IMG/VR virus record: IMGVR_UViG_3300032217_000845 | Location: 1 to 64,000 of that record | Reading direction: 5' to 3' (one strand) | DNA length: 64,000 nucleotides | From: a virus | Part shown: positions 46,144 through 64,000 of the stretch, piece by piece | How positions within the stretch are numbered: position 1 is the first letter of the stretch | Layout: each line of letters opens with the position of its first letter | Position numbers and translations under genes: made by a program | Notes under the pieces: generated by a model | Told to the model about the DNA's origin: nothing | The model's database searches: none | The model's input: only the letters and a program-made list of their open reading frames with translations

Positions 46144-46200
46144 GTCCCATTTTGGGACCCCCACCTGTTAGTCTTGTATCAAGACTAGAACCGAGACAGC

Positions 46201-47809: not shown

Positions 47810-47841
47810 AGAGCTCAGCCGCAGAGAGTAACTTCACATTA

Positions 47842-48693
47842 ATGTTTCGAAATGACAAACCGGCCAGGGCCCAGGAATTCATCCAGGCAGCAAAGAACTA
47901 CTTAGGCTACGTAGCGGGACCGATGCTGCGGAACCAGTTCGGCGAGCGCGTAGGGTATAATTCACAACCGTGGGCTGGAGCATTCATTGACGTCGTTGCA
48001 CGTGAGTGCGGCCTGCAGTTACCATCTTGCGTTCAAACCGCATCCGGGCTAGCTGAGCTCATCAACAACGGATTAGTACGAAGTCGACCGCTGCCTGGGG
48101 ACCTGGTCTTTTTTGCCTTCTCCTCCGAAAACGCGGCGAGCGCTTTTGCAATGCCGCATGTTGGGATAGTCATCGATACACGTGAGTACAAGTCAACGGG
48201 TAGATTCCTTACCATCGAAGGTAACGTACGGCCAGCTAATGCAAAGTATGGCCAGGATACCGACGGCGTGCACCAACGGGTCCGCTACCAGGGAGACGTA
48301 CTTGCGTACATTCGTCCGAAGTTCAACGGCAGCCGCAGCGGCCTGCATCCGGTTCAACTTCTCATTAAGGTTATTGCGAAGCTGAGCTCGAAGACGGCCC
48401 GCCTGGAAGCAACCGCTCTTGAAGAAGCGGCCCGCGTACCTAAGGACGTGTCAACCGCTGCGCTGAAGCCAGGTCTACGTAACCGCTCCATCGAAGTGGT
48501 GCAGCTAGCACTGGGTGTAACCGTTAATCTGAAGTCAGCGACGCCAGGTACCTGGGATGCTGCAACCGCGAACGCCTTCGCTAGGTATCAACGTCGCATC
48601 GGATATGTTGGAACCGCTGCCAGTGGTAACGTTGACCGAGTCACGCTACAGAGACTGGCCGCTGAAACCGGACTCTTCCAGGTAACTGATTAA
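47842..48693 (+). CDS. CHAP-like domain plus peptidoglycan-binding domain protein
   Basis: PWAGAF, PGDLVFF, HVGIV, TIEGN; C-terminal LKPG...VQLAL...G.WD..T..A..YQ. Confidence 0.75.
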   Translation: MFRNDKPARAQEFIQAAKNYLGYVAGPMLRNQFGERVGYNSQPWAGAFIDVVARECGLQLPSCVQTASGLAELINNGLVRSRPLPGDLVFFAFSSENAASAFAMPHVGIVIDTREYKSTGRFLTIEGNVRPANAKYGQDTDGVHQRVRYQGDVLAYIRPKFNGSRSGLHPVQLLIKVIAKLSSKTARLEATALEEAARVPKDVSTAALKPGLRNRSIEVVQLALGVTVNLKSATPGTWDAATANAFARYQRRIGYVGTAASGNVDRVTLQRLAAETGLFQVTD

Positions 48694-48858
48694 TCCGAAG
48701 TTAATGCGAAGCTGAAGCTCGAGCTCCGGCCGCCGGCTGAACTTCGCACTAAGGATGAGAAGTTCTCCTCTTTTCTTTTTCCGACTCGCCGTCAAACCGA
48801 CTTGACATAATCTGCAGTGGTTGCTATAGTGAATCCATCACAACCGAAAGGAACCACA

Positions 48859-49059
48859 ATGCCTAAGTACTTCATAAGATTCGATGTTCGCGAAGACTGG
48901 AAGGGCACCTTTGATGCCGACAATCTTGAGCACGCCAAGGAACTAGTTCGCCAGTTAGCCGAAGATGAGATTGGCACGGATGAACTTCCAAACTTCGATG
49001 ACCGCAACATGGGGATTTCCATCGAGGTCTACGAGGACAGTCTTGAGGAACTACCGTAA
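48859..49059 (+). CDS. acidic hypothetical protein
   Basis: TTGACA-17-TATAGT promoter at 48802 and GAAAGGA RBS. Confidence 0.65.
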   Translation: MPKYFIRFDVREDWKGTFDADNLEHAKELVRQLAEDEIGTDELPNFDDRNMGISIEVYEDSLEELP

Positions 49060-49370
49060 TGTGCTACGCATGCGATGACTTTGAATTCGAGGAACCGTGC
49101 CCAACCAAGTTCCCAGGATGCCAAGGTAACTGTTACGGCTTCGACTGCGCGGCATGCTCAGCGAACACGCTTCACCTGGACGAGTACTACATGGTAACCG
49201 ATGAGGTTTGGGAAGCGGCCTGGCCTCAGGACCGCGGCATGCTTTGCATCGGATGCCTTGAGTCGAAGTTGGGAAGGACCTTAACCGCTGCTGATTTCAC
49301 GGATGCCCCAGTCAATGACGGAGTCTTCGGCCAGTCCGAACGGCTAGCGGCCCGCTTGGCCGCGGAGTAA
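49059..49370 (+). CDS. Cys-rich hypothetical protein
   Basis: YYMV.DEVW...LCIGCLE.KLGR.L...DF. Confidence 0.7.
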   Translation: MCYACDDFEFEEPCPTKFPGCQGNCYGFDCAACSANTLHLDEYYMVTDEVWEAAWPQDRGMLCIGCLESKLGRTLTAADFTDAPVNDGVFGQSERLAARLAAE

Positions 49371-49449
49371 CTTCGTACTAACGGCTTGCCTGGAAGACGG
49401 CGAGCGCCTTCCCCAAATCACTATCTCGAACAACGGGTATGCTAACCGT

Positions 49450-49767
49450 ATGAGACACATCGAGATTCACGTAATCGAAACCGAGTTAGACGCGGCAAGC
49501 GCAGTTGCATGCGGCCTGCTCTCTGACCCGTTCTTCGTAACCGTCTGTGCTGACTGCGGAGATGACGTTGGGGGACTCGACATCTTTGAACCGTACTGCC
49601 TAGTACTCGATGAGGTAACCGAGTGGTACCTGTGTACTTACTGCGCTGAACCTGTAACCGACCCAGACACTGTCGACTCCGACTACTACTCACTCGTTGA
49701 GGAAGAACTAACCGACCCTGACGAAGATGACGAAGATGACGGACGCTTTGTAGTTATAGATGACTAG
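49450..49767 (+). CDS. acidic zinc-finger-like protein
   Basis: CADC...CTYC; D/E-rich tail. Confidence 0.6.
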   Translation: MRHIEIHVIETELDAASAVACGLLSDPFFVTVCADCGDDVGGLDIFEPYCLVLDEVTEWYLCTYCAEPVTDPDTVDSDYYSLVEEELTDPDEDDEDDGRFVVIDD

Positions 49768-49822
49768 TTGTAAATCCCGTTTCGTAGCAGTGCCTTCCAC
49801 CGACTTCTAACTACTAATAAGA

Positions 49823-49851
49823 AGTATAGCACTCGACCGACATAAAGTCAA
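49823..49851 (-). promoter_or_regulatory. leftward sigma-A-type promoter
   Basis: Minus strand reads TTGACT-17 nt-TATACT with an extended TG. Confidence 0.65.
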
Positions 49852-50015
49852 ACACTTAGATACTTCTAAATAGAGAAGACATACTTTTAGAAAAAACGAA
49901 TACAAGCGACTAAGACCCTCTACGGAAAAAACGAATACAACTAAACTCATCAGCCGACACTCTGATTAGTAATAAGAAGTTGCTAAATGTCCGAGGGTGT
50001 GCTACTCTCTCTGGT

Positions 50016-50579
50016 ATGGAAATCACAACACTAACTAGACACGAATACACCACAGAACGAGTTGCCAAGCACACAGGCAGTTTGGAGGGTTGCTATGACG
50101 ACTTCCACGTTGGCGAAGTCAATGGCGTAGTTATCTACATAGGAACTGACTACGCTGGCACGATTGACCCTGCCAAGAACCCTTTGAGGTTCTCGGACTA
50201 CTCTGCGAAAGAGATGAAAGGCTTTCAGGAGTATTGGGGACATTGGGACGCTATCAACAAGCACCTCCACAACAAGACCACAAAACCGGGCTGGGGTCTT
50301 ATCAACCTAGTTGTCTATGGCTTTGTAAATGGCATACAGATTGGCGACCCTACAAATGTTCTACACGCTGTTCCAACAGGTTTCACGCCAGAGGCAAACA
50401 GGATAGACGCAGGGGAACTTGTCTGGGTAGAGGTAGAACAGGCTGTAATGGATTGGCTCAACTATCCAGATAGCCAGCCAACACTTCACGCAATAGCAGA
50501 GGCAAAGCGTAAGGAGGCTGTTGCTCTATTCACAGCGAGCCTAGACCTAATCCAGCCTCTCGCCACGCTGATAAAATAA
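50016..50579 (+). CDS. hypothetical early protein (leaderless)
   Basis: TTGCTA-17-TACTCT promoter ends 7 nt before the ATG at 50016. Confidence 0.7.
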   Translation: MEITTLTRHEYTTERVAKHTGSLEGCYDDFHVGEVNGVVIYIGTDYAGTIDPAKNPLRFSDYSAKEMKGFQEYWGHWDAINKHLHNKTTKPGWGLINLVVYGFVNGIQIGDPTNVLHAVPTGFTPEANRIDAGELVWVEVEQAVMDWLNYPDSQPTLHAIAEAKRKEAVALFTASLDLIQPLATLIK

Positions 50580-50674
50580 ATCAGAAATGAACTTGACAAC
50601 TTCGCATTAGTAGTGTAAAGTCGTCAGTAGTTGGAAACCTCCAACGCACAAACTCCGAAAGGACGGAAATACAA

Positions 50675-51154
50675 ATGGCAACAGGAACTATCGTTGGCAA
50701 GGGACTTTACTTAGAGTTCGTTCCAACAGACACCACCACTCCTAGCACTAAGGTAATGCAGGTGCTATTCACACCAGAGGGTATTGACGAGGCTGGCAAC
50801 TATGTTCAGTTCTCAATGCACTCTCGCACTATCTCTGAAACTTCACCTCGCAAACAATGGAGGATTACGAAGTGTGGCACAGAGAATAAAGAGTTGCTTT
50901 CACTTGGCTCTGTTGGACAGGTCAAGGCACAGGAACTCGCTGTCCAAATGGTAGAACGCTTTGAGAAATCACTAGAACGAGCAGTTATGCCAGACAAGAC
51001 AAATCCAACTTGGAAACTTCGGTCTAAGCCAATCGCTGTGGAAATCACTTCCTTTGACTTGTCTGAAATCACAGATTGGAAAACCCCTCTGCCAGCACTA
51101 CGCAGAATACAGAAATGTCGTGTAGCACTTGACTTCCCCGAGAAGTTAGTGTAA
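50675..51154 (+). CDS. hypothetical early protein
   Basis: Own promoter (TTGACA-17-TAAAGT) and GAAAGGACGG RBS. Confidence 0.75.
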   Translation: MATGTIVGKGLYLEFVPTDTTTPSTKVMQVLFTPEGIDEAGNYVQFSMHSRTISETSPRKQWRITKCGTENKELLSLGSVGQVKAQELAVQMVERFEKSLERAVMPDKTNPTWKLRSKPIAVEITSFDLSEITDWKTPLPALRRIQKCRVALDFPEKLV

Positions 51155-51189
51155 GGTCAATACTACAAACCGATAAGGACGGAAAACAA

Positions 51190-52212
51190 ATGACTACAAT
51201 CGCACCAAGCACCACTCCAACTACCGAGTTGGACGACATCTATCCAGACCTTGCTAAACTTGTGTATGGAGTTGCTATTCAGACACTAGACGCTGGCTCT
51301 GTGCCAGCAGGTCTTGATAGCCTACTTCCTACTGCTGGTCGTGCTAACCTCCGAGCAAAGGGAGGCGACACCACCACTAGCAAGAAAGCAAAGGTAGAAC
51401 TATTGGCAGAACCAATCACAGGTGCTACCACCTACACCAGACCAAATGGTCGTGAGTATTATGCTCGTCAATGGGGCGAACACTCTGACGTGGAAGTCTG
51501 TCGCAAGGCTCGGGATAACAAGCAGTTTATCCTACTATACGGAAATCCTGGCTGTGGTAAGACAGCACTCGTTGAGGCTAGTTTCGGGGACGACCTATAC
51601 ACCATTATTGGAACAGGCGATACAGAGGTTGGCGACTTCCTCGGTGGCTATGTCCAAACTCCAAGTGGAGGCTTTGAGTGGATTGACGGAGTTCTAACCC
51701 GAGCAGTTGAGGAGGGCAAAGTCCTCCTGATTGACGAGGTTGGTCTGATTGACCCGAAAGTTATGTCGCTGGTCTATGGACTAATGGACGGCAGAGATGA
51801 ACTCGTCATTACCTCCAATCCAGAACGAGGCACTATCAAAGCCAAGCAGGGGTTCTATGTAATCTGTGCGACTAACCCTAACGCTGTTGGAGTTCGTCTA
51901 TCAGAGGCTCTGCTATCTCGCTGTGTTATTCAGGCTGAAATGACTACTGATTGGTCGCTTGCCAAGAAGTTAGGTGTGCCAGCCTCGGCTACCACGCTTG
52001 CTCAAAACCTGTCTAAGAAACAACTAGCAGGTGAAGTATCTTGGTCGCCACAGTTCCGAGAGTTGGAGGCGTTTAGGGACTTGTCCAAGACCTTTGGAAC
52101 TAAGTGGGCAGTTGCCAACCTAATCGCAACAGCACCCGAAATGGATAGACCTGTCGTGATAGATGTGGCTACCCGAGTATTCGGTGAGGATTGCCGACCA
52201 GCCAAGATTTAG
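51190..52212 (+). CDS. MoxR/CbbQ/CobS-like AAA+ ATPase
   Basis: GNPGCGKT, W.DG.L..A, LLIDE, ATNP, LSEALLSR. Confidence 0.9.
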   Translation: MTTIAPSTTPTTELDDIYPDLAKLVYGVAIQTLDAGSVPAGLDSLLPTAGRANLRAKGGDTTTSKKAKVELLAEPITGATTYTRPNGREYYARQWGEHSDVEVCRKARDNKQFILLYGNPGCGKTALVEASFGDDLYTIIGTGDTEVGDFLGGYVQTPSGGFEWIDGVLTRAVEEGKVLLIDEVGLIDPKVMSLVYGLMDGRDELVITSNPERGTIKAKQGFYVICATNPNAVGVRLSEALLSRCVIQAEMTTDWSLAKKLGVPASATTLAQNLSKKQLAGEVSWSPQFRELEAFRDLSKTFGTKWAVANLIATAPEMDRPVVIDVATRVFGEDCRPAKI

Positions 52213-52338
52213 CACTCCGTCCTGTGCTAATAGGGGGAGGTCAAAGAAGTTGCGAAATGGACTTGACTTCCCCCGACAACTCTGCTACTATCTTACTAGG
52301 TCAGAAACGCTGACCAGAAAATCAGGAAGGATTTTCTA

Positions 52339-54147
52339 ATGGGACACTATTCCAGACTAGCAACACGCACCAGCACCACGCCTCCTGCTTGGCTCAAAAC
52401 CTGCTCGCAGATTGGCACACTCGCTAACACTTGGGCTAATCGTGGCGACCTCGCTGTCTATGGTGGTGAGGACGCAGGTATGGGTGAGGCTCTCGCTTGC
52501 TTTATTCACAGCACAGCAGAGATTGAGGTCAATCTACCAATCGCTTTCGGTAAGGCAACCACGCCTGAAATGGTGGGCGACCTAACAGAACGCTACAACC
52601 AATACGAGTTCCCCGAGGCAACAGGCGTAATCCTCCACGAGGCGTTTCACGCTAGATACTCGGAGTGGAACTACGAACTTATGGACGCTGAAACTAAGAC
52701 AGAGCCAAAGGTTCGGGACGCTTTTATGTTGTTGGAGGAAAGTCGTATTGAGGGGCTGGCTGTCTATCACTTCCCCGAGAACGCATTATTCCTACGAGCC
52801 TCCTCAATGGGGCTGTCTTTCGCAGAGGCAGAAACCTCTATGGAAAAGATGTCTAAGACAGGTGCTTTCGCACACCTCGCAGGTCTGACCCTTGCCAGAG
52901 TTTCGGCAGGTGTCCTTGACGAGTTTGATGTCGCTGGTATCTACAACAGAGTTGCCGAGGTCTTGGGCGAGAAGTGCCTGAAAACTTTGGAGGCTATCTG
53001 GGTAGAGTTCCAGACACTAGACAACACGCTAAACGCTGACCTACTTCGTGGGATTGACCTTGCTCGTAAATGGATAGAGGCTATCAAGGAACGAGCAGAG
53101 GAACGAGGCGAACCAGCAGAACCAGAGTTCGGTGAGGGTATTCCTATTCCACAGGAACTAGCAGAGGCTCTGTCCGAGATTATGGAGGCTCTGGGTGAGG
53201 CTATGGAGGAAACCAAGTCTGCCACAGCAGAGGCTCTGGGTGAGCAACAGCAGGACGAGAACCTGAAAGAGGAAATCAAGGAACGCCAATCCAAAGCCAA
53301 TACCAAAGAGGAACGCAAGGCAGAGGCAGACAGGGTGTTCTCGCACAACTCCACTCTCGGTCAATCTGGTAGCAGTTCCCGATTGGAAAGCACTCGTCCC
53401 CCGAAAGGTGAGGAACGAGCAGGGGCAGTAAAGTTGGCACAGATGTTAGAGAAAGCCAAGTATGTAGAGAGGTCTGCCACAGAGATAGCAACCACTATTC
53501 CACAGGGTCGCCTACGCACTCGGGCTGTCGTCCAAAAGAAAGCGTTGGAGGCTAAGGGCATTAGGTCTGACCTCCCGACTTGGAGGGCTACCAAGCACAA
53601 GCACACCACAGACCCTATCTTGTCTATCGGTGTAATGGTAGATGTATCTGGCTCTATGGGTTCGGCTATGAACCCTATGGCGAGTATGGCTTGGATTTTA
53701 TCCGAGGCTGGTCGCAGAGTTCAGGCTAGAACTGCTATGGTCTATTATGGCTCGGGTGTCTTTCCAACTCTCAAAGTTGGACAGCACTTGGAGGAGGTCA
53801 AGGTCTGGACAGCACCAGACGGAACAGAGGAGTTTGGTCAGGCTTACAAAGCACTTGACGGAGTTCTCGGTCTGACTTATGCCGAGGGCGTGAAGTTGCT
53901 CGTAATCGTATCTGACGGACACTACCGACCAGACCAAGAGAAACAAGTGGTCAAGGCTCTCGCAGAGTGCGACAAGGCTGGCGTGGGAGTTCTCTGGATT
54001 ACACCTGCCGAGTGCCGAGGTGGAAACACCAGCCTCATTAGTGGGACAAATGCCACGCACCTAAACATTACGGACACAGCCTCAATCGCAACTGCTATCG
54101 GCAGGTCGGCAACCGAGGCTCTGACTAAGATTGGAGGGCGAGTGTAA
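52339..54147 (+). CDS. VWA-domain protein with an N-terminal HExxH domain (CobT-like partner)
   Basis: HEAFH, LEESRIE; MIDAS DVSGSM, T, VSDG. Confidence 0.88.
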   Translation: MGHYSRLATRTSTTPPAWLKTCSQIGTLANTWANRGDLAVYGGEDAGMGEALACFIHSTAEIEVNLPIAFGKATTPEMVGDLTERYNQYEFPEATGVILHEAFHARYSEWNYELMDAETKTEPKVRDAFMLLEESRIEGLAVYHFPENALFLRASSMGLSFAEAETSMEKMSKTGAFAHLAGLTLARVSAGVLDEFDVAGIYNRVAEVLGEKCLKTLEAIWVEFQTLDNTLNADLLRGIDLARKWIEAIKERAEERGEPAEPEFGEGIPIPQELAEALSEIMEALGEAMEETKSATAEALGEQQQDENLKEEIKERQSKANTKEERKAEADRVFSHNSTLGQSGSSSRLESTRPPKGEERAGAVKLAQMLEKAKYVERSATEIATTIPQGRLRTRAVVQKKALEAKGIRSDLPTWRATKHKHTTDPILSIGVMVDVSGSMGSAMNPMASMAWILSEAGRRVQARTAMVYYGSGVFPTLKVGQHLEEVKVWTAPDGTEEFGQAYKALDGVLGLTYAEGVKLLVIVSDGHYRPDQEKQVVKALAECDKAGVGVLWITPAECRGGNTSLISGTNATHLNITDTASIATAIGRSATEALTKIGGRV

Positions 54148-54237
54148 TCGGCTCGCCTCCACAAGAACCCGATAGGGATTGAGCAACCGAGGAGTTTCCG
54201 TCCCCTTTCACCTCAACTGCTCTCGCTATTGGTAGAG

Positions 54238-54273
54238 AACCCCTGACAACTTCCCCTTTGGTCAGGGGTTTTC
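54238..54273 (+). terminator. intrinsic terminator with a C/U-rich loop
   Basis: AACCCCTGAC / GTCAGGGGTT followed by TT. Confidence 0.75.
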
Positions 54274-54470
54274 GCTTACCCTGACCGACACACAATGTGT
54301 CCAGCAAAAGCATCTCTGCTGGAACTTCGTATCAACTAATCCGAAGTCAGCCTGAGCTGCCGAGATGGTCGCCTTGTATTCGTTTTTTCCAAACCGACAC
54401 GCCTCCTCGCCTACTTGACAACTTCGTATTAGTTATGGTAAGGTCGTAGTATCAACCGAAAGGGAAACAA

Positions 54471-54767
54471 ATGGACGACAGAGAAATAGCAACTAACGCA
54501 TTAGTCCTACTAGGGGCAACTGCCGAGGGCTGTGCCGAGAATGGATTGGCTAATCCAATCCTGTATCAAAGTTTGGAACTAGCAATAGAACTAGCAGAAC
54601 ACCTAGACGAACCTGACCTAGTAGTGCTACTCAAATCAGCGTTGATTGGAGTGGGCGAGGGGATTGAGGAAACTATGGCTATCGTCAAACAAATCAAATC
54701 GCAGTTTGACTTTATGAACACAAGCGAGTATAATCAGGACACGACACCTAACAAGGAGGACAACTAA
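54471..54767 (+). CDS. hypothetical protein
   Basis: Promoter and GAAAGGG RBS. Confidence 0.7.
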   Translation: MDDREIATNALVLLGATAEGCAENGLANPILYQSLELAIELAEHLDEPDLVVLLKSALIGVGEGIEETMAIVKQIKSQFDFMNTSEYNQDTTPNKEDN

Positions 54768-55663
54768 TGCCAAACTGGGTCTATACATCTATGGCAGTAT
54801 CAGGTAAGAAAGACGACCTGCTCGCCTTTGCTAAGAAAGCCAGCCAGCAACACGAAACTCTATGGCTCACCGAGAGGTGGAAACGCAACGAGGACGGCAC
54901 GAACACCGAAGTCCCCGAGGAGGAACGCAAGATTGAGAAAGAACTATCTCCACCAAGTCCTATCTCGTTCTGGAACTTCTTAGCACCAACAGAGGAGGAA
55001 CTGCCTTACTACTTTGGACACGCAACCAAGCCAGAGGACGAGGCTGACCCTGACGCAACTTCCGAGGAACGACTAGCAAAGGCTCTGTTGTTTGAGGGCT
55101 CGGGCTGGTATGATTGGAATGTTCGCAACTGGGGCTGTAAGTGGGACGCCAATGACGAGGAACTGGACACCGACCTAGACACGCTACAACCACACGATAG
55201 CCTGTCGTATCGTTTCTCTACGGCTTGGTCTCCTGCCGAGGGCGTGTTTCGTGCTATGACCGAACAGCACCCCGAACTATCCTTTGAGTTCTCTTGCGAG
55301 GAGGAACAGGGCTGGGGCGTGGTCTATGACGGCGAGAACGGCTCGCTATCTGTGGCTGACGAGTGGGAGATACCGAACAGCCACGCTGACTATGTGGCGA
55401 GGGATAACGAGGACGGCTGTGCCTGTGCGAGAGATGACGACCAAGAGGATTGGTATTCCGATTGTCCTAGACCGAGTGTTGAGGTTGTCGTAGTGGTAGA
55501 ACACCGATACAAGATTACAGCACCGACCATAGCCGAGGCTTGGGAACTTGCTCTCAACGGCAACCCTGCTGACCTGACGGCAAGCCTGATAGAGGGCGAG
55601 ACTACTGCCTTTGTGATAGGCGAGGACGGCAAGCGTATCTACCCGACCTTAGAGAACGCATAA
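54767..55663 (+). CDS. YubB/DUF1281-like ferredoxin-fold protein
   Basis: MPNW, WYDWNVRNWGCKWDA, FSTAWSP, HPELSF...EE.G. Confidence 0.75.
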   Translation: MPNWVYTSMAVSGKKDDLLAFAKKASQQHETLWLTERWKRNEDGTNTEVPEEERKIEKELSPPSPISFWNFLAPTEEELPYYFGHATKPEDEADPDATSEERLAKALLFEGSGWYDWNVRNWGCKWDANDEELDTDLDTLQPHDSLSYRFSTAWSPAEGVFRAMTEQHPELSFEFSCEEEQGWGVVYDGENGSLSVADEWEIPNSHADYVARDNEDGCACARDDDQEDWYSDCPRPSVEVVVVVEHRYKITAPTIAEAWELALNGNPADLTASLIEGETTAFVIGEDGKRIYPTLENA

Positions 55664-55707
55664 CGGCTCGCCTTGACTAATCAGACGGATTGGTGTAGGG
55701 TAGCCTT

Positions 55708-55941
55708 ATGAGCAAGAACGCAACCGAGGAGTTTGTAGATGTCCTGATTACTTGGGACACCGAGCAAACCGATACAGATGAAGTCGTAGTAGCAATCGGG
55801 GACGGGTCGGTAGTCTATGACGAGGACTTCGCCTTTGACCCCCGAGTGTATTTCTACTTTGATAACCGAGAGCAGTTTGAGTTAGCAAAGACCAAAATAA
55901 TAGAGGACATAAACTTCCAAATCCTACGGGTTTTGGACTAG
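55708..55941 (+). CDS. acidic hypothetical protein (leaderless)
   Basis: TTGACT-17-TAGGGT just upstream; D..VYFYF motif. Confidence 0.65.
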   Translation: MSKNATEEFVDVLITWDTEQTDTDEVVVAIGDGSVVYDEDFAFDPRVYFYFDNREQFELAKTKIIEDINFQILRVLD

Positions 55942-55958
55942 CAAGAAACGGAGTAAAA

Positions 55959-56192
55959 GTGCCAAAGACAAAGCAGATAGATACTTGGGAGTGGTTCATA
56001 GAACGCTACCAAGAACTCGGCTACAAATCACTAAATCAGTTTGCTATCGCAGAGGGCTTTCAGAAGTCCAGCCTTAGCAGATACTTCCACAAGCAAAGAC
56101 AAATGCCAGCAGATACCTTGGTGGCTGTTTGCCTTGCTCTCAAAGTCAAGCCAGAGGATTTGCTGGTTGCTCTGAACGAGTGGAAACGCTAG
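55959..56192 (+). CDS. XRE/Cro-like HTH protein
   Basis: SLNQFA...FQKSSLSRYF...L..VC.AL.V.PEDL. Confidence 0.8.
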   Translation: MPKTKQIDTWEWFIERYQELGYKSLNQFAIAEGFQKSSLSRYFHKQRQMPADTLVAVCLALKVKPEDLLVALNEWKR

Positions 56193-56428
56193 ACCAACCC
56201 CGATAGGGAAACACCTGAGCAAGTGTTCTAAACTGCTCGCCACAATCTGCCTCCGTTTGTATTCGTTTTTTCCTCGGACTTGCGAAATGTCGGAGGCTGT
56301 GATACACTCGCTAATGTGAAGTTCTCCGATAGGACGACACACCAGAGCAAATGAACTTGACAAAGTTTCGTAAGTCTGGTAAGTTCTAAATGTAAAGCCC
56401 AATGATACTAAGTAGATAAGGAAATCAA

Positions 56429-56806
56429 ATGGCAACTACAAAGAGCACCACCACTAAGGGACAGGTTATCCTGACCACCACCAATGAGCCAGAGGTTCGC
56501 CTCTCGGCAAAGGGACAGAAAGCAGTTCGGGAACTCCGAGACGCACACAACTTGGAAAAGCAAGTTGCCGAAATCGTCAAGGCTAGCAGAGATGTTATCC
56601 TCAACGAACTAGGGAACGAGCAGACCAAGTTTGGAACAGACGCAAAGGGTAAGCGTCTGGTCAAAATCCACCTCATTACCCCGAAAGACCCAACACGCTA
56701 CAACACAGCAGAGTTGGTAGCGTTCCTCGCAAAGACACAGCCAGAGGTTCTGGAAATGTTTAGAGCAGAGGACGCAAAGGCGACCACCCGAGTTCTTACT
56801 CTCTAA
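56429..56806 (+). CDS. hypothetical protein
   Basis: Tandem promoters and TAAGGA RBS; followed by a terminator. Confidence 0.7.
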   Translation: MATTKSTTTKGQVILTTTNEPEVRLSAKGQKAVRELRDAHNLEKQVAEIVKASRDVILNELGNEQTKFGTDAKGKRLVKIHLITPKDPTRYNTAELVAFLAKTQPEVLEMFRAEDAKATTRVLTL

Positions 56807-56825
56807 CGAGAGTAAGCCAGAAAAG

Positions 56826-56866
56826 CCCCGACAGACAGTTATCCCCTTTCACTCTGTCGGGGTTTT
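56826..56866 (+). terminator. intrinsic terminator with a C/U-rich loop
   Basis: CCCCGACAGA / TCTGTCGGGG followed by TTTT. Confidence 0.8.
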
Positions 56867-56986
56867 CGCCTATCTGGTTTTGGCTCGTTTGTATTCGTTT
56901 TTTCCTCGCATCTAAAATCTTCGGGTTTGACAACGACACACTAATACGAAGTTGTAAATGTCAGAGGTTTATGGTAGAGTGCTGGT

Positions 56987-57436
56987 ATGGACAAAAGACA
57001 AACTAACAACTGCGAAATCTGTGGCGAGTTATTTACTGACCTACCACTTGACGAGGAGTGTTCTTGCTCAAAGAGAAAGGACGCTGCTTTCTATGTCAAT
57101 AGTGATGGTGGCGAGTTCGTGTGGAACCCTAAACTCAATGAGGACGAGGGAGAGAAACACGAATACTATGTTGTGCGTAATGGGGAAATGCGTATCAAGG
57201 CGACAGATGGCAAGGGTAGAGATTATGTCCTACGCTACACAGAGGACTTAGAGGCTTTCGGTATCACGACAGACGAGCAACTTTACGAGGCAAGCACAGA
57301 CGAGGAAAACTTCTATTGGGATATGAACTCTTGGTTTGAGGTCTGCTGTGATTTTGACGAGGCTTACTCTGATGTCTTTGACGACCTTGACAGAGCCATA
57401 GCAGAGGCAGTAAGATTACGAAAGGAAGGACACTAA
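56987..57436 (+). CDS. acidic hypothetical protein (leaderless)
   Basis: TTGTAA-17-TAGAGT ends 6 nt before the ATG. Confidence 0.7.
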   Translation: MDKRQTNNCEICGELFTDLPLDEECSCSKRKDAAFYVNSDGGEFVWNPKLNEDEGEKHEYYVVRNGEMRIKATDGKGRDYVLRYTEDLEAFGITTDEQLYEASTDEENFYWDMNSWFEVCCDFDEAYSDVFDDLDRAIAEAVRLRKEGH

Positions 57437-57723
57437 TGAAACTACGAATAGCGTTTGGCGACACTCTTAGAGAGATACGACAAGACCAACACAGAACTCT
57501 TAGAGAGGTGTCTGTAAAGTCTGGCGTGGCACTTGGCTATGTATCGGAAGTAGAGAGAGGGCAGAAAGAGGCTTCATCGGAAGTCTTGGAAAGCCTGACC
57601 AACACGCTTGGCGTGTCTATGGCTGACTTCCTAATCCTTACAGCGTTGCGTCTAGGTGCTGTCGCTGTCCCCGACACAGCAGAAACCCTACTTGACGAAT
57701 ACACCGACCTTGTGGTAAGATAA
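57436..57723 (+). CDS. clgR: ClgR-like XRE transcriptional regulator
   Basis: GDTLR..R..Q.RTLREVS....VALGY.SEVERGQKEASSE.L, the actinobacterial ClgR signature. Confidence 0.8.
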   Translation: MKLRIAFGDTLREIRQDQHRTLREVSVKSGVALGYVSEVERGQKEASSEVLESLTNTLGVSMADFLILTALRLGAVAVPDTAETLLDEYTDLVVR

Positions 57724-57742
57724 GGGAAAGGAAAGGACGACA

Positions 57743-57952
57743 ATGAGCAGACAAGTTTATTTTGTAATCGGTGTTGATTTAGACGACAAAACAGTTTTCA
57801 TAGATGACGGCACATTTACGGCTCGCTTTGGTAAAGACGAGCAGGTATGGGACACCGATAAACAAGAGTGGCGAGAATACGAGGGCGAGGAACAAGAGGA
57901 ATACGACCTCGCCTTAGAAATCCTCAACACCGAGAAGTTGAGGGACGACTAA
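57743..57952 (+). CDS. acidic hypothetical protein
   Basis: Strong RBS; 69 aa. Confidence 0.7.
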   Translation: MSRQVYFVIGVDLDDKTVFIDDGTFTARFGKDEQVWDTDKQEWREYEGEEQEEYDLALEILNTEKLRDD

Positions 57953-58257
57953 TGGAATACGACCTATACTCACCCGAGAGGAACTTCTCGGCTATCCCTG
58001 ACCTGAAACTTGTAAAGATTACAGGGGACGACAGGGACAGAAGTATTCACTTCCTCTGGCGAGGCGATAGACAATGGCTCGCTATGAGTAAGGATAATCC
58101 TTACGAGGATAACTGCTGGCTTGTAGTCAAGACCGACTACACAGACGAGTTTCAGGAGTTTCTTGACGAGGAACTCTCTGGCTACGATAGCCTAGAAAGC
58201 ACCTTTGAGTTATCGGACATTATTCCAACCGAATACTCAATAGAGTTTGATAACTAA
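57952..58257 (+). CDS. acidic hypothetical protein
   Basis: TAATG coupling; start at MEYDL. Confidence 0.65.
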   Translation: MEYDLYSPERNFSAIPDLKLVKITGDDRDRSIHFLWRGDRQWLAMSKDNPYEDNCWLVVKTDYTDEFQEFLDEELSGYDSLESTFELSDIIPTEYSIEFDN

Positions 58258-58266
58258 ATAGACTTG

Positions 58267-58525
58267 CTTGATACACGCTGAACCATTTTGGTGCGTGGGC
58301 AGAACTAACTACCTGCCTATTATCAAGGAAACCGAGTGAAATCTCGCTAAACTACGGACAACACGCTCGGTGGTGAATACGCCTCTGGTGGAAGTAGCAG
58401 GTCGGGTCTAGAACTGACCAAGAGTTTATTCTCAATGCGAAATAGCACAATGACGCAAAGTAGCCCCTTGTGTGTTCGTCCGAACCTAAGACCAGATAGC
58501 CATAACGCTTTCTGGTCTTTCTCTT
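58267..58525 (+). ncRNA. candidate large structured RNA followed by a terminator
   Basis: Nested helices CTTGATA/TATCAAG, CACGC/GCGTG, GGCAG/CTGCC, CGGACAACAC/GTGTT-C-GTCCG, GGTCGG/CTGACC; terminator AAGACCAGA/TCTGGTCTT. Confidence 0.6.
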
Positions 58526-58673
58526 TTTGGTGAGGTGTTGTATTCGTTTTTTCTCTACGCCTACTGTGGAAAGAGGGAACTTCGCATTAGTGTTTCGTTC
58601 TTGACAAATGTCAGAGGAGTATGCTAGTATCACTATGTAGTCAGAAAGTCTGACACAGAAAGGGTCTAGTCCT

Positions 58674-59159
58674 ATGGGATTGGATATGTATTTAGAGGCT
58701 CGCAAGTATGTAAGTGGATACTCTCACAGACCTATTGACGAGCAGAACGAGTATGAGGAAGTGCTGAACTCGGTAGGTATGTCAAGAACAGACCTAACAG
58801 CAGAGGCAAGTCCTTTCGCTAATGTAAGTATAAATGTTGCTTATTGGCGTAAGGCTAATCAGATACACGCTTGGTTCATCAACAACTACGCCAAAGATGG
58901 TGTAGATGATTGTAGCCCTGTCCATCTTGGCGAGAGATACCACCTTAGTATTCTAAGAAACCTCTGCCAAGAGGTCATTGACGACCACAGCAAAGCAGAG
59001 GAACTTCTGCCTGTTTCATCTGGCTTCTTCTTTGGGTCAGACGAGTATGGCGAATACTACTTCCAAGACTTAGAGAACACCATTGAGCAGTTGGATAAGT
59101 TGCTCTCTAATCCTAAGTTTGCTGAGGGCTGGGACTTCATCTACCAAGCAAGTTGGTAG
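58674..59159 (+). CDS. conserved phage hypothetical protein
   Basis: MGLDMYL, YWRKANQIHAWF, LLP..SGFFFG...Y.EYY, YQASW. Confidence 0.8.
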   Translation: MGLDMYLEARKYVSGYSHRPIDEQNEYEEVLNSVGMSRTDLTAEASPFANVSINVAYWRKANQIHAWFINNYAKDGVDDCSPVHLGERYHLSILRNLCQEVIDDHSKAEELLPVSSGFFFGSDEYGEYYFQDLENTIEQLDKLLSNPKFAEGWDFIYQASW

Positions 59160-59336
59160 CCACAAACTAAGCACGACCCCTTAGCACACGCTAGGGGGTT
59201 TTGCTTTACCTGTTTGCTGGCGAGGTGTATTCGTTTTTTCAGACGACACGGCACGGCACGGGAACTTGACTAAACAAATGAACTATGATACTATGTAGAT
59301 ACAACGGGCGAACAGGAAGTAGCCTGAAAGGGATAA

Positions 59337-59708
59337 ATGGAAACTACAACTATTACGGGTCTGGTAGCAACCACACCACGACACCTAGTATCAGCAGACG
59401 GCTTGCCGATTACTTCTTTCCGATTGGCGAGCAGTAATCGCAGGTTTGACCGAGCCACTATGGAGTGGGTGGACGGCGAGACTAATTGGTATACGATTAC
59501 CTCTTTCCGCACACTCGCAATCAACACCGCTACATCTATCAGCAAGGGCGACCGCATTGTTGTATCAGGCACACTTCGTATTCGTGATTGGGACAACGGC
59601 GAACGGGTAGGAACTAGCGTTGAGTTAGAGGCGAGCAACATTGGACACGACTTAGCGTGGGGGACTACCACCTTTGTCCGAACCGTTCATAAAGCAGACA
59701 CCGAATAA
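59337..59708 (+). CDS. ssb: single-stranded DNA-binding protein, actinobacterial type, without acidic tail
   Basis: TITGLVAT.P, FRLAS..RRFDR...WVDG.TNWYTI..FR.LA, KGDR.VV.G.LR.RDW, IGHDL.WGT. Confidence 0.9.
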   Translation: METTTITGLVATTPRHLVSADGLPITSFRLASSNRRFDRATMEWVDGETNWYTITSFRTLAINTATSISKGDRIVVSGTLRIRDWDNGERVGTSVELEASNIGHDLAWGTTTFVRTVHKADTE

Positions 59709-59885
59709 CCGAACGGCTCGCCTAACGGCGTGGGATTGGCAAGCCTAACGGCTTGCCTTTCTGCGTTTGACGGCAAGCCTATTGGCGAGCAGACGGCAAG
59801 CCTAACGGGTGTGTCAGGCTTGACAAAGACCGACCGCTATGGTAGGCTAGCAGAGCAGACAACCCTGCCAACCGATAGGACAGAA

Positions 59886-60128
59886 ATGACAACCGCACTA
59901 CCCGAACTAACCGAGATGACCACCAAGACCGACCAACCGATAGTCGCACTCTACAACCGAGACGACAGACTAACGGGTATCGTAAATGGCTGGAAAGTCG
60001 CTGACGGAGTAATGGAAATGGACGAGAGTATCAAGCGAGCAGTAGCGACTAGCGAACTGACTATGGCTGAACTCGTTGAGATTGACCAGAGTATCGCCAG
60101 ACTTCGCAACTTGCGTGGAACTCTCTAA
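59886..60128 (+). CDS. hypothetical protein
   Basis: TTGACA-17-TAGGCT promoter at 59820 and AGGA RBS place the start at 59886. Confidence 0.65.
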   Translation: MTTALPELTEMTTKTDQPIVALYNRDDRLTGIVNGWKVADGVMEMDESIKRAVATSELTMAELVEIDQSIARLRNLRGTL

Positions 60129-60304
60129 ACAAAACTAGCCAAGTGGAAACACTTGGTTTTAGTTTTAGCCCGAAGTGTATTCGTTTTTTCCCTGCGTAAA
60201 TTTTGCTGAAAATAAAATCCTAAATGAGTTTGATTTTGTCGGGAGTATGTGGTAGGGTATAAATGTAGTCAGAAATACTGATTATCCAATCACTCTGAAA
60301 GGGT

Positions 60305-60667
60305 GTGGTAAAAGTGGAAACACTAAACCAAGTAGTAATAACAAAGTCGGTCAATGGCGTAGAAGTTGCCACGCTATCTGAACTAGGGATTTTGCTAGGC
60401 GTAAAGCCAAGCACTATCTTTGTCTGGATAGATAAATACAAGAACTTCCCTAAGCCTGTTGCCGAAATCAAAGGTGCTGGTCGTAATGGGCGTTCTCGCT
60501 TGTTCCCGATTGACGCTGTTCAGGTGTGGCACAAGAAACACATTACGACACGCAAGGCTAACGAATGGACAGGTATTCTTTCCAAGTTGAGCCAAATCTC
60601 AAAGGCTAGTCCTGCCACTTACAAAATCATTCTGGAAATGATTGACGAAGCGTCAGGTCGCAAGTAG
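60305..60667 (+). CDS. AlpA/excisionase-like HTH protein
   Basis: LSELG.LLGV.PSTI.VW....NFPKP...LF....V..W. Confidence 0.75.
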   Translation: MVKVETLNQVVITKSVNGVEVATLSELGILLGVKPSTIFVWIDKYKNFPKPVAEIKGAGRNGRSRLFPIDAVQVWHKKHITTRKANEWTGILSKLSQISKASPATYKIILEMIDEASGRK

Positions 60668-60847
60668 CCACACGACACTAGACTTACCCCCTGCTAATCA
60701 CAGGGGGTTTTCTGGTTTTGGGACACGACTAGTTTGTATTCGTTTTTTCCATCACGACACACTTCGCACTAACACGCTTGACTTTATTTAGAAACTATGC
60801 GATAATAGAGATGTTGTCGGGAAAGGCTCGGCACGGAAAGGGATAAA

Positions 60848-61171
60848 GTGGGCGACAGGTCTGCGATTATCATTGAGAGTGAAAGGTTCATCACGCCTAT
60901 CACGCTATACGGACACTGGTCGGGCAGGAACAACCTTGCTGCTGTGGCTAGTGTGTTGGAAACTACGGACAGGGTTGGCGACCCGTCTTATCTCACGGCT
61001 CAACTGTTTTACAAGTTTGCTGTGGAACTTGGCAAGTATGACGGAAATCTGTCTTTCGGTATTGACGCTTTCGGTGGGACACCACAGGAAATAAATGCGA
61101 CTATGGACACCGATACGATTGTCGTAAATGCCGATAATGGAACTTGGCGTTGGGCGATACCCGTAGAGTAA
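60848..61171 (+). CDS. conserved phage hypothetical protein
   Basis: MGDRS.I, LY.HW.G, R.GDPSYL. Confidence 0.75.
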   Translation: MGDRSAIIIESERFITPITLYGHWSGRNNLAAVASVLETTDRVGDPSYLTAQLFYKFAVELGKYDGNLSFGIDAFGGTPQEINATMDTDTIVVNADNGTWRWAIPVE

Positions 61172-61187
61172 TCTTTATACGAACGCA

Positions 61188-61224
61188 GGTTAGCACTCAC
61201 GCAACACGAGTGCTAACCTCTTTT
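61188..61224 (+). terminator. intrinsic terminator
   Basis: AGGTTAGCACTC / GAGTGCTAACCT followed by a T-rich tail. Confidence 0.8.
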
Positions 61225-61384
61225 CGTTTTTGCTTAGGTAGAAGTTGTATTCGTTTTTTCCGGCAGCGACAGATAACTTCGCATTAGCGACACGAAGTTA
61301 GACAGACTTGCGTTTGTCGCTAGTGTGTGATACAATGAAGTTATTACACAGGCGAGAAACCTAAGTATCGCTGAAAGGGAAACA

Positions 61385-61807
61385 ATGACAGAAATAGAAA
61401 CAGAGATACAAACTCTCACGGCAGAGTTGGATAGCGATTGTTCTTGCGAGGACTATGACGAGGACACAGACACAAGCAAGCCTAGTGAAAGTTGCTTCGG
61501 AGATTGTTGGACAGAAAGTAAAGACGACTTTACTGAACACTTGCTCAAACCTTACCTTGTTGTAAAGGGTTGGAAAATGGACACGCCTATCAAGGTTGCT
61601 TCATCACGAATGACTTGGCAAGGCATTAGAGGTTGGGCATACACTACGCCTGAACGCTTGGTTGATACGCTTACTCTCAATGGAGATTTTCGCCTAGTGT
61701 TTGAGTTTGACGGAAACGACCTAACTGCTATTCGCTATTCTCACGACGAGCCAATGGGAACAGGTAAGTTTGAGATTGAGTTGTCTGACGAAAGCGACGA
61801 CGACTAA
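61385..61807 (+). CDS. conserved phage hypothetical protein
   Basis: Promoter and GAAAGGG RBS; M.W.GI.G, YSHDEPMG. Confidence 0.75.
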   Translation: MTEIETEIQTLTAELDSDCSCEDYDEDTDTSKPSESCFGDCWTESKDDFTEHLLKPYLVVKGWKMDTPIKVASSRMTWQGIRGWAYTTPERLVDTLTLNGDFRLVFEFDGNDLTAIRYSHDEPMGTGKFEIELSDESDDD

Positions 61808-62018
61808 ACACGACACGAGAAAGGTCGCTGACTTCGGTTGGCGACTTTTTTTGTATCTGCCGATTACGGAGTTGTATTCGTTTTTTCCTCACCCCTGCCG
61901 AACACGACTTCCCTGTTATCTATTTGTTATAAAACTTTCTACACTTCGGGAATAAATGAACTTGACTTTTAGTTATACTCTATGTAATAATGTAGTTATG
62001 GACAACGAAAGGGAAACA

Positions 62019-62546
62019 ATGAACAACTACGAGAAGTCATACAGCAACGAGCCGTTTCTAAATGGTGCGTTAGACATACCTATTTGGAGTGAAATACTGC
62101 CGAACTTTTGGCTAGGTGGAACTGCCGATAACGATTGTGTTGGCGATAAGCACTTTCAGTTTGATAGGCAGGACATCTCTATCAAGCCTAGAAACTTTGA
62201 TAGCGTTTATACTTTCTACGCTTACGCTAACCCTGTTGATTGGCTAGTTAGAGAGTTTAGGTTTGGCTACTTTGATAGTGGCGAAACTGACTTTGACTTA
62301 GACGAGTTTAGGCGTATTGCTCTAATGGCTCACGCTGATTGGAAGCGTGGCGAGAGAGTGCTAATGCGTTGCCAAGCAGGTCTAAACAGGTCAAGCCTAT
62401 TCTTTGCCTTAGTGCTTATGATTGACGGCTACACGGCACAAGAAGCGATTGACTTGATACGAGAGAAGCGACACGATAAGTGTCTATTCAATCCTCACTT
62501 CGTAGCGTGGTTGCTCAAACAAGACTTAGAGTTTTGGCGAGCATAA
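62019..62546 (+). CDS. dual-specificity/tyrosine phosphatase family protein
   Basis: SEILPNFWLGG, CX5R loop CQAGLNRS, AIDLIREKR, FNP.F. Confidence 0.88.
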   Translation: MNNYEKSYSNEPFLNGALDIPIWSEILPNFWLGGTADNDCVGDKHFQFDRQDISIKPRNFDSVYTFYAYANPVDWLVREFRFGYFDSGETDFDLDEFRRIALMAHADWKRGERVLMRCQAGLNRSSLFFALVLMIDGYTAQEAIDLIREKRHDKCLFNPHFVAWLLKQDLEFWRA

Positions 62547-62738
62547 ACTCACGCTAAGAAAACCTAACCCCCGTGAAAACTCACGGGGGATTTTCTTAGT
62601 GCGAAGTTGCGAAGGTGTATTCGTTTTTTCCTTACTCTACAAACACGGTGGAAGTATTACTTGCGTAAATCCATAAGGTATGGTAAGATAGTTAGGTAGT
62701 CAGAAAGTCTGGCACAATAGAAATCCTGAAAGGGAACA

Positions 62739-63062
62739 ATGCTAAAAATGGAAATAAATGGGACAGAAGTAGTTAGTCCTATGGAAATCGCAAGTCGCTT
62801 CGGAGTTAGTTTGCCTGCTGTTTATGTCTGGGCAAGGCGTTCGGATTTTCCGACACCACTACTAACGACAGGTGGCTCACAACGACCACGCCACATTTAC
62901 TCGGCTACCGAGATTGAGGCTTGGGTCGCTGAACACCTTGACGCTAAGGGTGGCAGGGGCAAGGCTCATCTAATCGGGCGTAGAGTTCTAGGGCTGGCAA
63001 CATCTAACCCTGAAATCTACAAGCAGATTGAGCAGTTGCTAGAAAGCACCGACACCGAATAA
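62739..63062 (+). CDS. AlpA/excisionase-like HTH protein (paralog of 60305)
   Basis: EIASRFGVS..AV.VW.RR.DFP.P...Y...EI.AW. Confidence 0.78.
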   Translation: MLKMEINGTEVVSPMEIASRFGVSLPAVYVWARRSDFPTPLLTTGGSQRPRHIYSATEIEAWVAEHLDAKGGRGKAHLIGRRVLGLATSNPEIYKQIEQLLESTDTE

Positions 63063-63257
63063 GGCTCTGAAAGAAACACGCTTACCCGAAAGGGTAGGCG
63101 TTTTCTTTTTTTGCTAATGCGAAGTTAGCCGAGTGTATTCGTTTTTTCCTTACACGCTGTCTAGCACGACACGCTAATAGTATGAACTTGCTTTTGTCGG
63201 TAGTATTTGGTATAATAGTTATGTAGTCAGAAAGACTGATTACAGAAAGGGAAACAA

Positions 63258-63572
63258 ATGGAAATCGCTTTACTAGGTTTCTTAGGTGTTGTATCGCTTA
63301 TGACTATCGGTGCTTTCTTGGTCGTAGTCTTGTGTGCGTTTATCATCTACAAGATAGACCCGACTTATGACGAGTTTGGTTTCTGGGGAAACTTCCGTAT
63401 GGAACTCTCCACTATCCTTGCTGGCAAGTTTGGCTACGAAGTATCACGACAAGAATACAAACAGGCTTACGACTTAGGTGTCAAAATGAGCGACAGAACT
63501 CTACAAGGTAGCAAGAACAGACACCCTGCCAACAATGATGGTAAGTTGCCTTACGAACTCTACAAATACTAA
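63258..63572 (+). CDS. membrane protein
   Basis: Long N-terminal hydrophobic segment; RHPA motif. Confidence 0.7.
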   Translation: MEIALLGFLGVVSLMTIGAFLVVVLCAFIIYKIDPTYDEFGFWGNFRMELSTILAGKFGYEVSRQEYKQAYDLGVKMSDRTLQGSKNRHPANNDGKLPYELYKY

Positions 63573-63788
63573 GTAGAACTCACCGAGAGATTACCCCGTA
63601 GAGATACGGGGTTTTCTTTTACCCTGTGGGCTGGGAGTTGTATTCGTTTTTTCTATACCACTAATACGAAAGATAACAACTTGATAACAACACGATACAA
63701 AGATAGTAAATGGGCTTGTATTGTCATTAGATAGGAGTATAATCATAGGTATAGGAAAGTTTCCAAAGGGGAAACTGAAAGGGACAAA

Positions 63789-64000
63789 ATGACACTAGTA
63801 GCAGATACCAAGATTGGCACAGCAGTAGAAACCAAGATTGGCACAGCCGAGTTGAGTGCTGGTAGAGAACGCAAGAACTTCTACAAAGACGGAACTAGGG
63901 TTGCTCACATAGACAGGATTTACGCACCGAGCAGAGTGTTTATTGACTTGGGCGAGAGTGTCTGGGAACACCTGAACAACAGACACAATAGGGATTGGCA
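63789..64000 (+). CDS. hypothetical protein (3' truncated)
   Basis: TATAAT and GAAAGGG RBS; MTLVADTKIGTAVETKIGTA..., open to the window end. Confidence 0.65.
   Translation, partial: MTLVADTKIGTAVETKIGTAELSAGRERKNFYKDGTRVAHIDRIYAPSRVFIDLGESVWEHLNNRHNRDW

Follow-up and report, generated by a model that had tools for sequence, protein, structure and literature searches.

A 30-kb zone nearly free of palindromes and restriction sites, a probable early-entry module, in the genome of an uncultured freshwater phage related to actinophages

Why should a phage genome carry short palindromes in abundance up to one position and almost none beyond it? This question is raised by the IMG/VR virus record IMGVR_UViG_3300032217_000845, of which positions 1 to 64,000 (the window) were analyzed; they open a phage contig of 125,776 bases. 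An earlier note on this DNA had described a sharp-edged region of at least 14 kb, beginning at about 49.85 kb, in which nearly all four-base palindromes vanish, and had read it as a first-injected or terminal-repeat host-takeover module purged against a very broad panel of type II restriction enzymes. In the present work, the depletion and its edges, the enzyme-like spectrum of the missing words, the cost at the protein level, the mosaic among lineages and the synteny with terminal repeats were computed directly. Thirteen words were counted (AATT, ACGT, AGCT, ATAT, CATG, CCGG, CGCG, GCGC, GGCC, GTAC, TCGA, TGCA, and TTAA). Between 49,850 and 64,000 (14,151 bases) they occur 11 times, where base composition predicts about 702, and positions 1–49,849 hold 1,779 of them, in agreement with the earlier description of words abundant before the boundary and nearly absent after it. 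GATC, which that description had excepted, is absent on both sides and from all 125,776 bases, unlike the other words, whose loss is confined to the zone. After 49,850, CTAG occurs 56 times (3.96 per kb, vs 4.98 per kb before the zone) and TATA 17 times. The guanine-plus-cytosine (GC) content differs little between the two sides of the 49,850 split (47.7% vs 46.0%).

On the whole contig, the palindrome-free zone extends from 49,834 to 80,226, i.e., over 30.4 kb, with a sharp edge on each side. The sharpness claimed before was borne out, and the extent had to be corrected from the minimum of 14 kb. The bounding sites are a TCGA at 49,833 (the last before the zone) and an AATT at 80,227 (the first after it), and palindromes resume about 130 bases before the terminase-side genes. 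The zone holds 24 sites of the 13 words, where about 756 are predicted from the codon shuffle and 1,108 from the flanks; site density is 0–4 per kb within it and 16–65 per kb elsewhere on the contig, and its edges are sharp to about 100–300 bases. As a control, 50 synonymous-codon shuffles were made for each region, in which proteins, codon usage and non-coding DNA were held constant. The observed-to-expected ratios of the 13 words were 0.00–0.08 in the zone vs 0.40–1.14 in the two flanks, and the lowest count in any shuffle was always far above the observed count in the zone, so that the depletion withstood the codon-preserving comparison that the note had called for. Under this null, 27 patterns had ratios of 0.00–0.25 in the zone and values near 1 in the flanks, GATC apart. 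Both CTAG and TATA had been said to stay common; this held for CTAG, which is at expectation in the zone (146 vs 148), and TATA is halved. Outside the zone, CCGG, CGCG, and GCGC are found at about half of their codon-shuffle expectation. None of the listed palindromes occurs between 51,488 and 54,355, in accordance with an earlier reading by eye that had found no four-base palindrome other than CTAG in the gene for a VWA-like protein located there. Since the left edge is bridged by independently assembled contigs from two other studies (X2 record 1, 47,198–51,895; X5 record 8, 49,338–52,042), it is neither a chimeric join nor an assembly artefact. Five of the 24 residual palindromes (four AATT and one TGCA) lie in a reversed open reading frame (ORF) of 168 amino acids (contig 74,773–75,279, minus strand; L001 10773–11279), and its cassette may be a recent acquisition that has not yet been purged.

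To delimit the missing words without bias, every pattern that specifies four bases (splits 2+2, 1+3, and 3+1), has gaps of 0–9 bases and is expected at least 20 times was scanned. Twenty-five patterns showed a zone/flank ratio of 0.11 or less, every one of them palindromic, and the next value was 0.32. They comprise the 13 ungapped words and 12 gapped patterns, which are GANTC, GTNAC, GGNCC, TTNAA, GCNGC, ACNGT, CCNGG, GTNNAC, CTNNAG, GGNNCC, CAN5TG, and CAN6TG. The depletion previously suspected for GANTC, GCNGC, CCWGG, and GAAGA was found for all four: the first two occur 0 and 7 times in the zone vs flank-based expectations of 112 and 155, and the last two 4 and 27 times vs 52 and 134 expected. 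CTNNAG is lost for every inner dinucleotide (0–4 occurrences vs 25–36 expected in the seven classes containing no other purged word), and the loss of CA...TG is strictly bound to spacing, with 3 vs 71 expected for N6 and 19 vs 129 for N5, and 121 vs 118 for N4 and 129 vs 100 for N7. Asymmetric five-base words (GCTCC, GATGC, CATCC, ACTGG, GAGAC, and CAGTC) are almost lost too. These words were compared with the 395 recognition sites with an expectation of at least 10 in the Biopython 1.87 enzyme table. Most depleted words are recognition sites of that table, many of them REBASE prototypes; they include the sites of HinfI, MaeIII, Sau96I, Fnu4HI, Tsp4CI, ScrFI, Hpy8I, NlaIV, and AgsI and, among asymmetric ones, those of LmnI, SfaNI, FokI, BsrI, BsmAI, and MboII. 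Many other sites are unaffected (e.g., CTAG, CCTC, and GCNNGC), and TCNGA is mildly lowered (72 vs 101). For CTNNAG, CAN5TG, CAN6TG, ATAT, and CAGTC, the table holds no exactly matching enzyme.

A cause other than restriction, i.e., avoidance of self-complementary DNA (hairpins, cruciforms or a single-stranded stage) or a foreign or chimeric origin of the segment, would account for the palindromic nature of almost all purged four-base patterns. We regard it as hardly credible, since CTAG is at expectation and TATA only halved, the loss hinges on exact spacing, and asymmetric enzyme sites were purged as well. Terminator-like hairpins with stems of 8–11 bp are common in the zone (18 found vs 12.1 expected), indicating that hairpins per se are not avoided. 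The nearly constant GC content, the bridged left edge, and the zones found at the same place with other words in related phages (see below) likewise speak against such a cause.

The purge extends to the encoded proteins. For sixteen dipeptides, every possible coding sequence contains a purged word: Ala-Ala entails GCNGC; Val-Thr, GTNAC; Thr-Val, ACNGT; Gly-Pro, GGNCC; and Pro-Gly, CCNGG, and further ones are Phe-Lys and Phe-Asn (TTNAA), Trp-Pro (GGCC), and Met-His and Met-Gln (TGCA). These forced dipeptides occur 14 times in the zone proteins, compared with 208.3 expected from amino-acid composition, and 1,111 times in the rest of the genome, compared with 1,087.4 expected. The 602-amino-acid VWA-like protein has none of them, compared with 26 and 31 in its orthologues from two relatives that show no purge, 11 of them being Ala-Ala in each case. 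The two TGCA sites at 50,757 and 50,817, earlier ascribed to unavoidable codon pairs, fit the single Met-His and the single Met-Gln of the zone. Proteins are altered where the genetic code offers no synonymous escape.

Using the VWA-like protein as query, 32 IMG/VR loci were obtained. In many of them palindrome density steps down a few kb upstream of the VWA gene, always downstream of a highly conserved gene coding for a "gp1-like" protein. The search for the same boundary in related genomes, which had been proposed as a check, was positive: a zone at the same genomic place, with differing word sets, was found in 17 related loci and in three near-complete contigs, the zones of the latter measuring about 24, 22, and 28 kb, each with two sharp edges. 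Across 18 zones the words form an on/off mosaic, every lineage purging its own subset. Locus L008 has lost all words but TTAA; L011 has lost the words containing A or T and kept CGCG and GCGC; close relatives divide into a group in which CGCG was purged and CATG kept and another in which CATG was purged and CGCG kept; and CAN6TG was purged in three lineages. No purge was seen in loci L012 and L039, and no general purge in the lake metagenome-assembled genome (MAG) DSL-LC01 or in phages Pumpernickel and Sixama. DSL-LC01 (L005 and L006; OQ999401.1, 1–100,000), with 55% GC and no zone, contains neither ATAT nor TTAA in 100 kb. The mosaic is not predicted by ancestry, composition or DNA structure; in the 18 zones the word set appears to track host or lineage and not phage ancestry. 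An on/off mosaic at a fixed genomic place argues for selection by differing host restriction-enzyme repertoires. Given the enzyme-type word set, the 25 palindromic patterns and the differing subsets purged by relatives at the same place, a purge by a very wide range of type II-like enzymes, as the note had proposed, is strongly supported.

The position of the zone in the virion DNA was approached through cultured relatives. The zone is syntenic with the exact direct terminal repeats of Microbacterium phage Pumpernickel (19,963 bp, in which genes 1–52 equal genes 302–353) and Arthrobacter phage Atuin (17,312 bp). The Pumpernickel repeat terminates in a 650-bp non-coding repeat tract. In Atuin (L060/L063), TATA occurs three times in the repeat (two of them in its last 250 bases) vs 40 times in the 40 kb outside, which may be a weak single-word echo of the zone. 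On its left, the zone adjoins a strand-polar array (Table 1) in which AACCG occurs 42 times on the plus strand vs 2 on the minus strand and CGGCNNGC 23 vs 2 times; these motifs run through coding DNA, including the gene for the gp1-like protein. This protein is up to 82% identical (to that of L008) where its neighbours reach about 50%. The segment 46600–49833 is the best conserved part of the neighbourhood and has 52.9% GC vs 43.8% just upstream. Pfam, PHROGs and the protein atlas gave no usable function for the gp1-like protein or for an acidic 132-amino-acid protein. A palindrome "peak" at 47–49 kb, at first suspected to be a decoy, proved to be a composition effect in this GC-rich DNA and was discarded, the left 3.8-kb segment having 206 palindromes vs 206.8 in codon shuffles. 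AACCG is also polar in the first 3.9 kb of Pumpernickel (32 vs 5), starting 206 bases from its physical left end, and the first 4 kb of Atuin carry other polar five-base words (TGCCG, 34 vs 4; TGCGG, 25 vs 2). In addition, 14 related contigs have an end no more than 10 kb upstream of the VWA gene, and in 7 of them that end lies between −409 and +840 bp from the start of the gp1-like gene. Because of the repeat synteny, the shared polar array and the clustered contig ends, the left end of the virion DNA likely lies near 46.0 kb and the zone within a terminal repeat of about 34 kb (about 46.0–80.2 kb). What stands of the earlier terminal-repeat host-takeover module is this synteny with the Pumpernickel and Atuin repeats, plus the AACCG array shared with the Pumpernickel left end. 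The polar array may arrest an exonuclease as Chi does, serve to load a protein or act as a stop signal. The right-border array contains no DnaA-box series; two perfect DnaA-box nine-base words, 12 bases apart (contig 74,074 and 74,086), lie inside the zone and are the only perfect copies in the genome.

From these results we consider it probable that the zone is DNA that is naked and needed in the cell before host restriction is neutralized, i.e., an early module resembling the "first-step" DNA of phage T5, most likely located inside a long direct terminal repeat. The terminal repeat, the entry order, the pause and the protective early function are inferred for this genome; the terms "first-injected" and "protected in some other way" that the note had used rest on analogy with T5 and BF23 as presented in the available part of PMC10644984. 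Under this reading, the left end would enter first, headed by the 3.8-kb segment with its polar five-base array, and about 40 self-contained early cassettes would follow, each consisting of a terminator, an invariant 15-base word (15-mer), a promoter and a small gene. Entry would halt just short of the terminase genes, at the non-coding repeat array of 1.5 kb, and the early proteins would next shield the rest of the genome, which could for this reason keep its sites. Any zone site for an enzyme present in the host would be lethal, so that, over time and in many host strains, all specificities encountered by the lineage would be lost from the zone, namely 13 palindromes of four bases, 12 with gaps and several asymmetric sites. 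The terminase-side (right) half holds two to three times as many residual sites as the left one in three relatives (16/31, 14/36, and 14/40), which mildly favours left-to-right entry.

Several observations weigh against this reading. The termini, the repeat and the two-step entry of this genome are taken from relatives and analogues rather than directly seen, and its own residual sites show no left–right gradient (31 vs 33, summed). The cultured relatives with proven repeats lack a general purge (none in Pumpernickel; TATA only in Atuin), and so does T5 first-step DNA itself, with 68.6 vs 63.4 four-base palindromes per kb. Among the 31 of about 80 zone ORFs that were scanned against Pfam and/or PHROGs, no known anti-restriction family and no match to T5 A1, A2 or dmp was found. 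Ten of the 41 cassettes are reversed, a poor fit to purely transcription-driven entry. Finally, the putative left-terminal 3.8 kb carries palindromes at the codon-shuffle expectation, and because this tip is unpurged, a plain rule that first-entering DNA is purged fails for it. An extra assumption is needed: the tip may be sacrificial, stop exonucleases or be coated with protein, or the DNA may enter the other way round. We speculate that the tip could be dispensable, its genes being duplicated in the other repeat copy, and that the polar words might halt an exonuclease or be bound by a protein injected with the DNA.

Reversed entry would mean that the right repeat copy enters first, from about 80.2 kb leftwards, and that the AACCG/CGGCNNGC array (49.7–46.0 kb) is an injection stop at which entry pauses. 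Such polarity would account for both edges, with the physical end at 80.2 kb and the stop at 49.8 kb; on the left, the zone does begin within about 120 bases of where the polar array ends, the array is kept at the same place in relatives with a differing word (TGCCG/TGCGG in Atuin), and no unpurged first-entering tip would be left to explain. However, 31 of the 41 cassettes would enter 3' end first, and the terminase-side excess of residual sites in the three relatives is the reverse of what the longest exposure predicts. The T5 stop is moreover described, in the text available of 10.1101/866236, as a non-coding repeat region, to which the array at 78.76–80.23 kb is a closer match than a polar array within coding DNA. 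We therefore consider this polarity unlikely. Still less probable is that the zone is simply a terminal repeat whose second copy, made late at packaging, escapes a protective modification applied after replication, with no two-step entry at all. Late synthesis of the terminal repeat is familiar from T7 biology. The zone maps onto the terminal repeats of relatives, and genes outside it code for one N6/N4 DNA methylase, a glycosyltransferase and a nucleoside-deoxyribosyltransferase-like/deoxynucleoside monophosphate (dNMP)-kinase fusion, which leave some DNA modification possible. However, the 3.8-kb array segment would belong to the same repeat and is unpurged, one methylase cannot cover 25 or more specificities, and no hypermodification pathway was recognized among the scanned ORFs.

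The organization of the zone bears on the preferred reading, that of an early-entry module, and on a further alternative. The zone contains about 80 ORFs of at least 45 amino acids in about 41 cassettes. The invariant 13–15-mer is present in 41 copies (31 forward and 10 reversed) between 49,891 and 78,568 (13-base core) and nowhere else in the genome; in the window the 15-mer has 14 matches, all at or past 49,890, with 0.01 expected. Each copy has a terminator-like hairpin on one side and a TTGAC-type promoter-like site on the other. A generic promoter scan of the zone was unconvincing alone (17 vs 12.9 ± 2.8 in shuffles). In contigs from other lakes, joints occur at 15-mer copies, e.g., from 56,905 to 63,133 and from 60,191 to 62,615, the flanking matches being short (20–36 bases). 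Besides the genes listed in Table 1, zone matches include a polynucleotide-kinase-like ATPase and small helix-turn-helix (HTH) proteins. Several zone ORFs are very acidic, and the small acidic proteins are unproven candidates for DNA mimics. The alternative is that the zone avoids early nucleases of the phage itself, which would break down host DNA at a time when the zone alone has entered. Davison's idea of T5 A1 as a restriction enzyme, as found in the available text of 10.1101/866236, offers a published parallel, and the genome-wide absence of GATC could reflect a nuclease active throughout infection. We judge this very improbable, since it needs 25 or more specificities that differ between close relatives and no nuclease families were found among the 31 scanned zone ORFs.

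Table 1. Features of the palindrome-free zone and its borders (positions on the window and, beyond 64,000, on the contig).
Feature	Position	Strand	Remarks
Strand-polar motif array	46028–49710	+	Adjoins zone on left; unpurged; putative left-terminal segment of virion DNA
Conserved gp1-like gene (311 amino acids)	46,692–47,627		In array; 35% identical to Pumpernickel gp1
Endolysin	47,842–48,693		In array; 30% identical to Pumpernickel gp5
Palindrome-free zone, window part	49834–64000	.	Extends to 80,226 on contig (G000:C1)
Two reversed 15-mer copies	49890–49939	−	First copies in the genome, at left edge of zone
MoxR-type AAA+ ATPase	51190–52212	+	AAA_5, 65 bits; first recognizable zone gene; kept in all relatives
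VWA-like protein (602 amino acids)	52339–54147	+	Weak VWA_CoxE match, 21 bits, under the 26.4 cut-off
Twelve forward 15-mer copies	54375–63653	+	
Small HTH transcriptional regulator	57436–57723	+	
Single-strand DNA-binding-protein-like ORF	59337–59708	+	phrog_44, E 4e-17
Dual-specificity phosphatase	61956–62546	+	
Right-border array	about 78,760–80,226		Non-coding, no ORF of at least 50 amino acids; 20 or more direct-repeat families
Terminase-small-subunit-like HTH gene	80,358–80,867		HTH_23

The contig that carries the zone is a collapsed assembly whose ends show no clean overlap. It contains a phage replication module, a ribonucleotide reductase, a portal and tail genes, and it also encodes a transfer-messenger RNA (tag ANTSAYALAA; window 30321–30616), tRNA-Asn (30873–30945), and tRNA-Thr (32792–32864). 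The nearest named relatives of the portal are actinophages, DSL-LC01 (69.8% identity) and Pumpernickel (63.9%), followed by other large phages of Microbacterium, Arthrobacter, and Gordonia. Near-identical DNA is present in 20 public runs from 15 studies, mainly freshwater metagenomes, and the record may derive from one of them. A host search comparing the ribonucleotide reductase with genome contigs gave two loci, both probably phage contigs binned into MAGs, and named no host. One of them, L062 (a 106,187-base contig filed as a Cyclobacteriaceae MAG), has a ribonucleotide reductase 74% identical over residues 1–370 and probably comes from a related phage whose contig was binned with a bacterial MAG. 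A GC content of 46.5% is given for "Ca. Planktophila" in the available text of PMC10202952, and its resemblance to that of the phage is a mere hint at the host.

This is the most extreme regional purge of restriction sites that we have found; hardly any Ala-Ala, Val-Thr, Thr-Val, Gly-Pro, Pro-Gly, or Phe-Lys is left in about 80 proteins, and the purge implies that restriction enzymes can shape a phage strongly enough to constrain protein sequence. We tentatively propose, with chances somewhat short of even, that the zone preserves, as a fossil read-out, the restriction repertoire (30 or more four- to five-base specificities) of uncultured freshwater actinobacterial hosts, in which at least four specificities (CTNNAG, CAN6TG, CAN5TG, and ATAT) have no tabled enzyme and recur independently in relatives, and that the polar terminal array, the zone and the repeat-array border make up a three-part "entry module". 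Such a zone would provide a sequence-only marker for the DNA first exposed by an uncultured phage, predict that DNA enters in stages in a large group of lake actinophages found around the globe, and supply enzyme specificities, some apparently new, that can be tested for in freshwater Actinobacteria. The roughly 80 uncharacterized early proteins would be a natural place to seek anti-restriction functions. If the entry module is real, T5-style staged entry would have evolved independently in actinophage siphoviruses, and entry polarity, terminal repeats and host enzyme specificities could be read from sequence alone in uncultured phages.

How does the zone compare with known systems? In phages and plasmids, short palindromic enzyme targets are rarer genome-wide than composition or codon controls predict. 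GATC here, with no copy in 125,776 bases, is of that kind; unlike such avoidance, the zone purge is regional, sharp-edged, near absolute and reaches dipeptide usage. Bacillus phage SPO1 has a host-takeover module of many small early genes, each with a strong promoter, in a long terminal repeat, and we know of no reported regional site purge in it. The literature that we consulted offers precedents (T5/BF23, Autographiviridae, and plasmid leading regions) and no description of such a palindrome-free block, although supplements may hold more. In T7-like Autographiviridae, according to the available text of PMC12455610, the leading, early-injected region governs how sensitive they are to type I restriction, and isolates from nature and escape mutants lack the motifs there. 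The likeness lies in the principle that only motifs in the first-entering region matter; that case concerns one motif, one system and a short region, whereas the zone spans 30 kb and dozens of specificities, with 10 of its 41 cassettes against the presumed direction of entry.

The closest parallel is T5. As the accessible portion of 10.1101/866236 describes it, the T5 pre-early block lies in a terminal repeat of about 10 kb and is bordered by a 1.66-kb non-coding repeat region with an injection stop signal, and for T5-like phages (T5/BF23) PMC10644984, in the part available, reports that type I and type II restriction are effective only if sites lie in the first-step DNA. As in these phages, a block of small early genes would stand here in or near a long direct terminal repeat, its inner border being a non-coding, repeat-rich region of 1.5–1.7 kb. 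Unlike T5, the portal kin of the zone phage are actinophages and not Demerecviridae, homologues of A1, A2, and dmp are absent from the scanned zone ORFs, the border array lacks a DnaA-box series, and two-step entry would hold by analogy alone. The zone block is also three times longer than that of T5, with 25 or more word classes near zero and remodelled proteins. Since T5 first-step DNA has no general depletion (six-base words gave 14.2 vs 14.3 per kb, in line with the four-base counts above), the analogy is one of principle and not of degree. The zone shares the first-step logic and layout of T5, but it lies outside that family.

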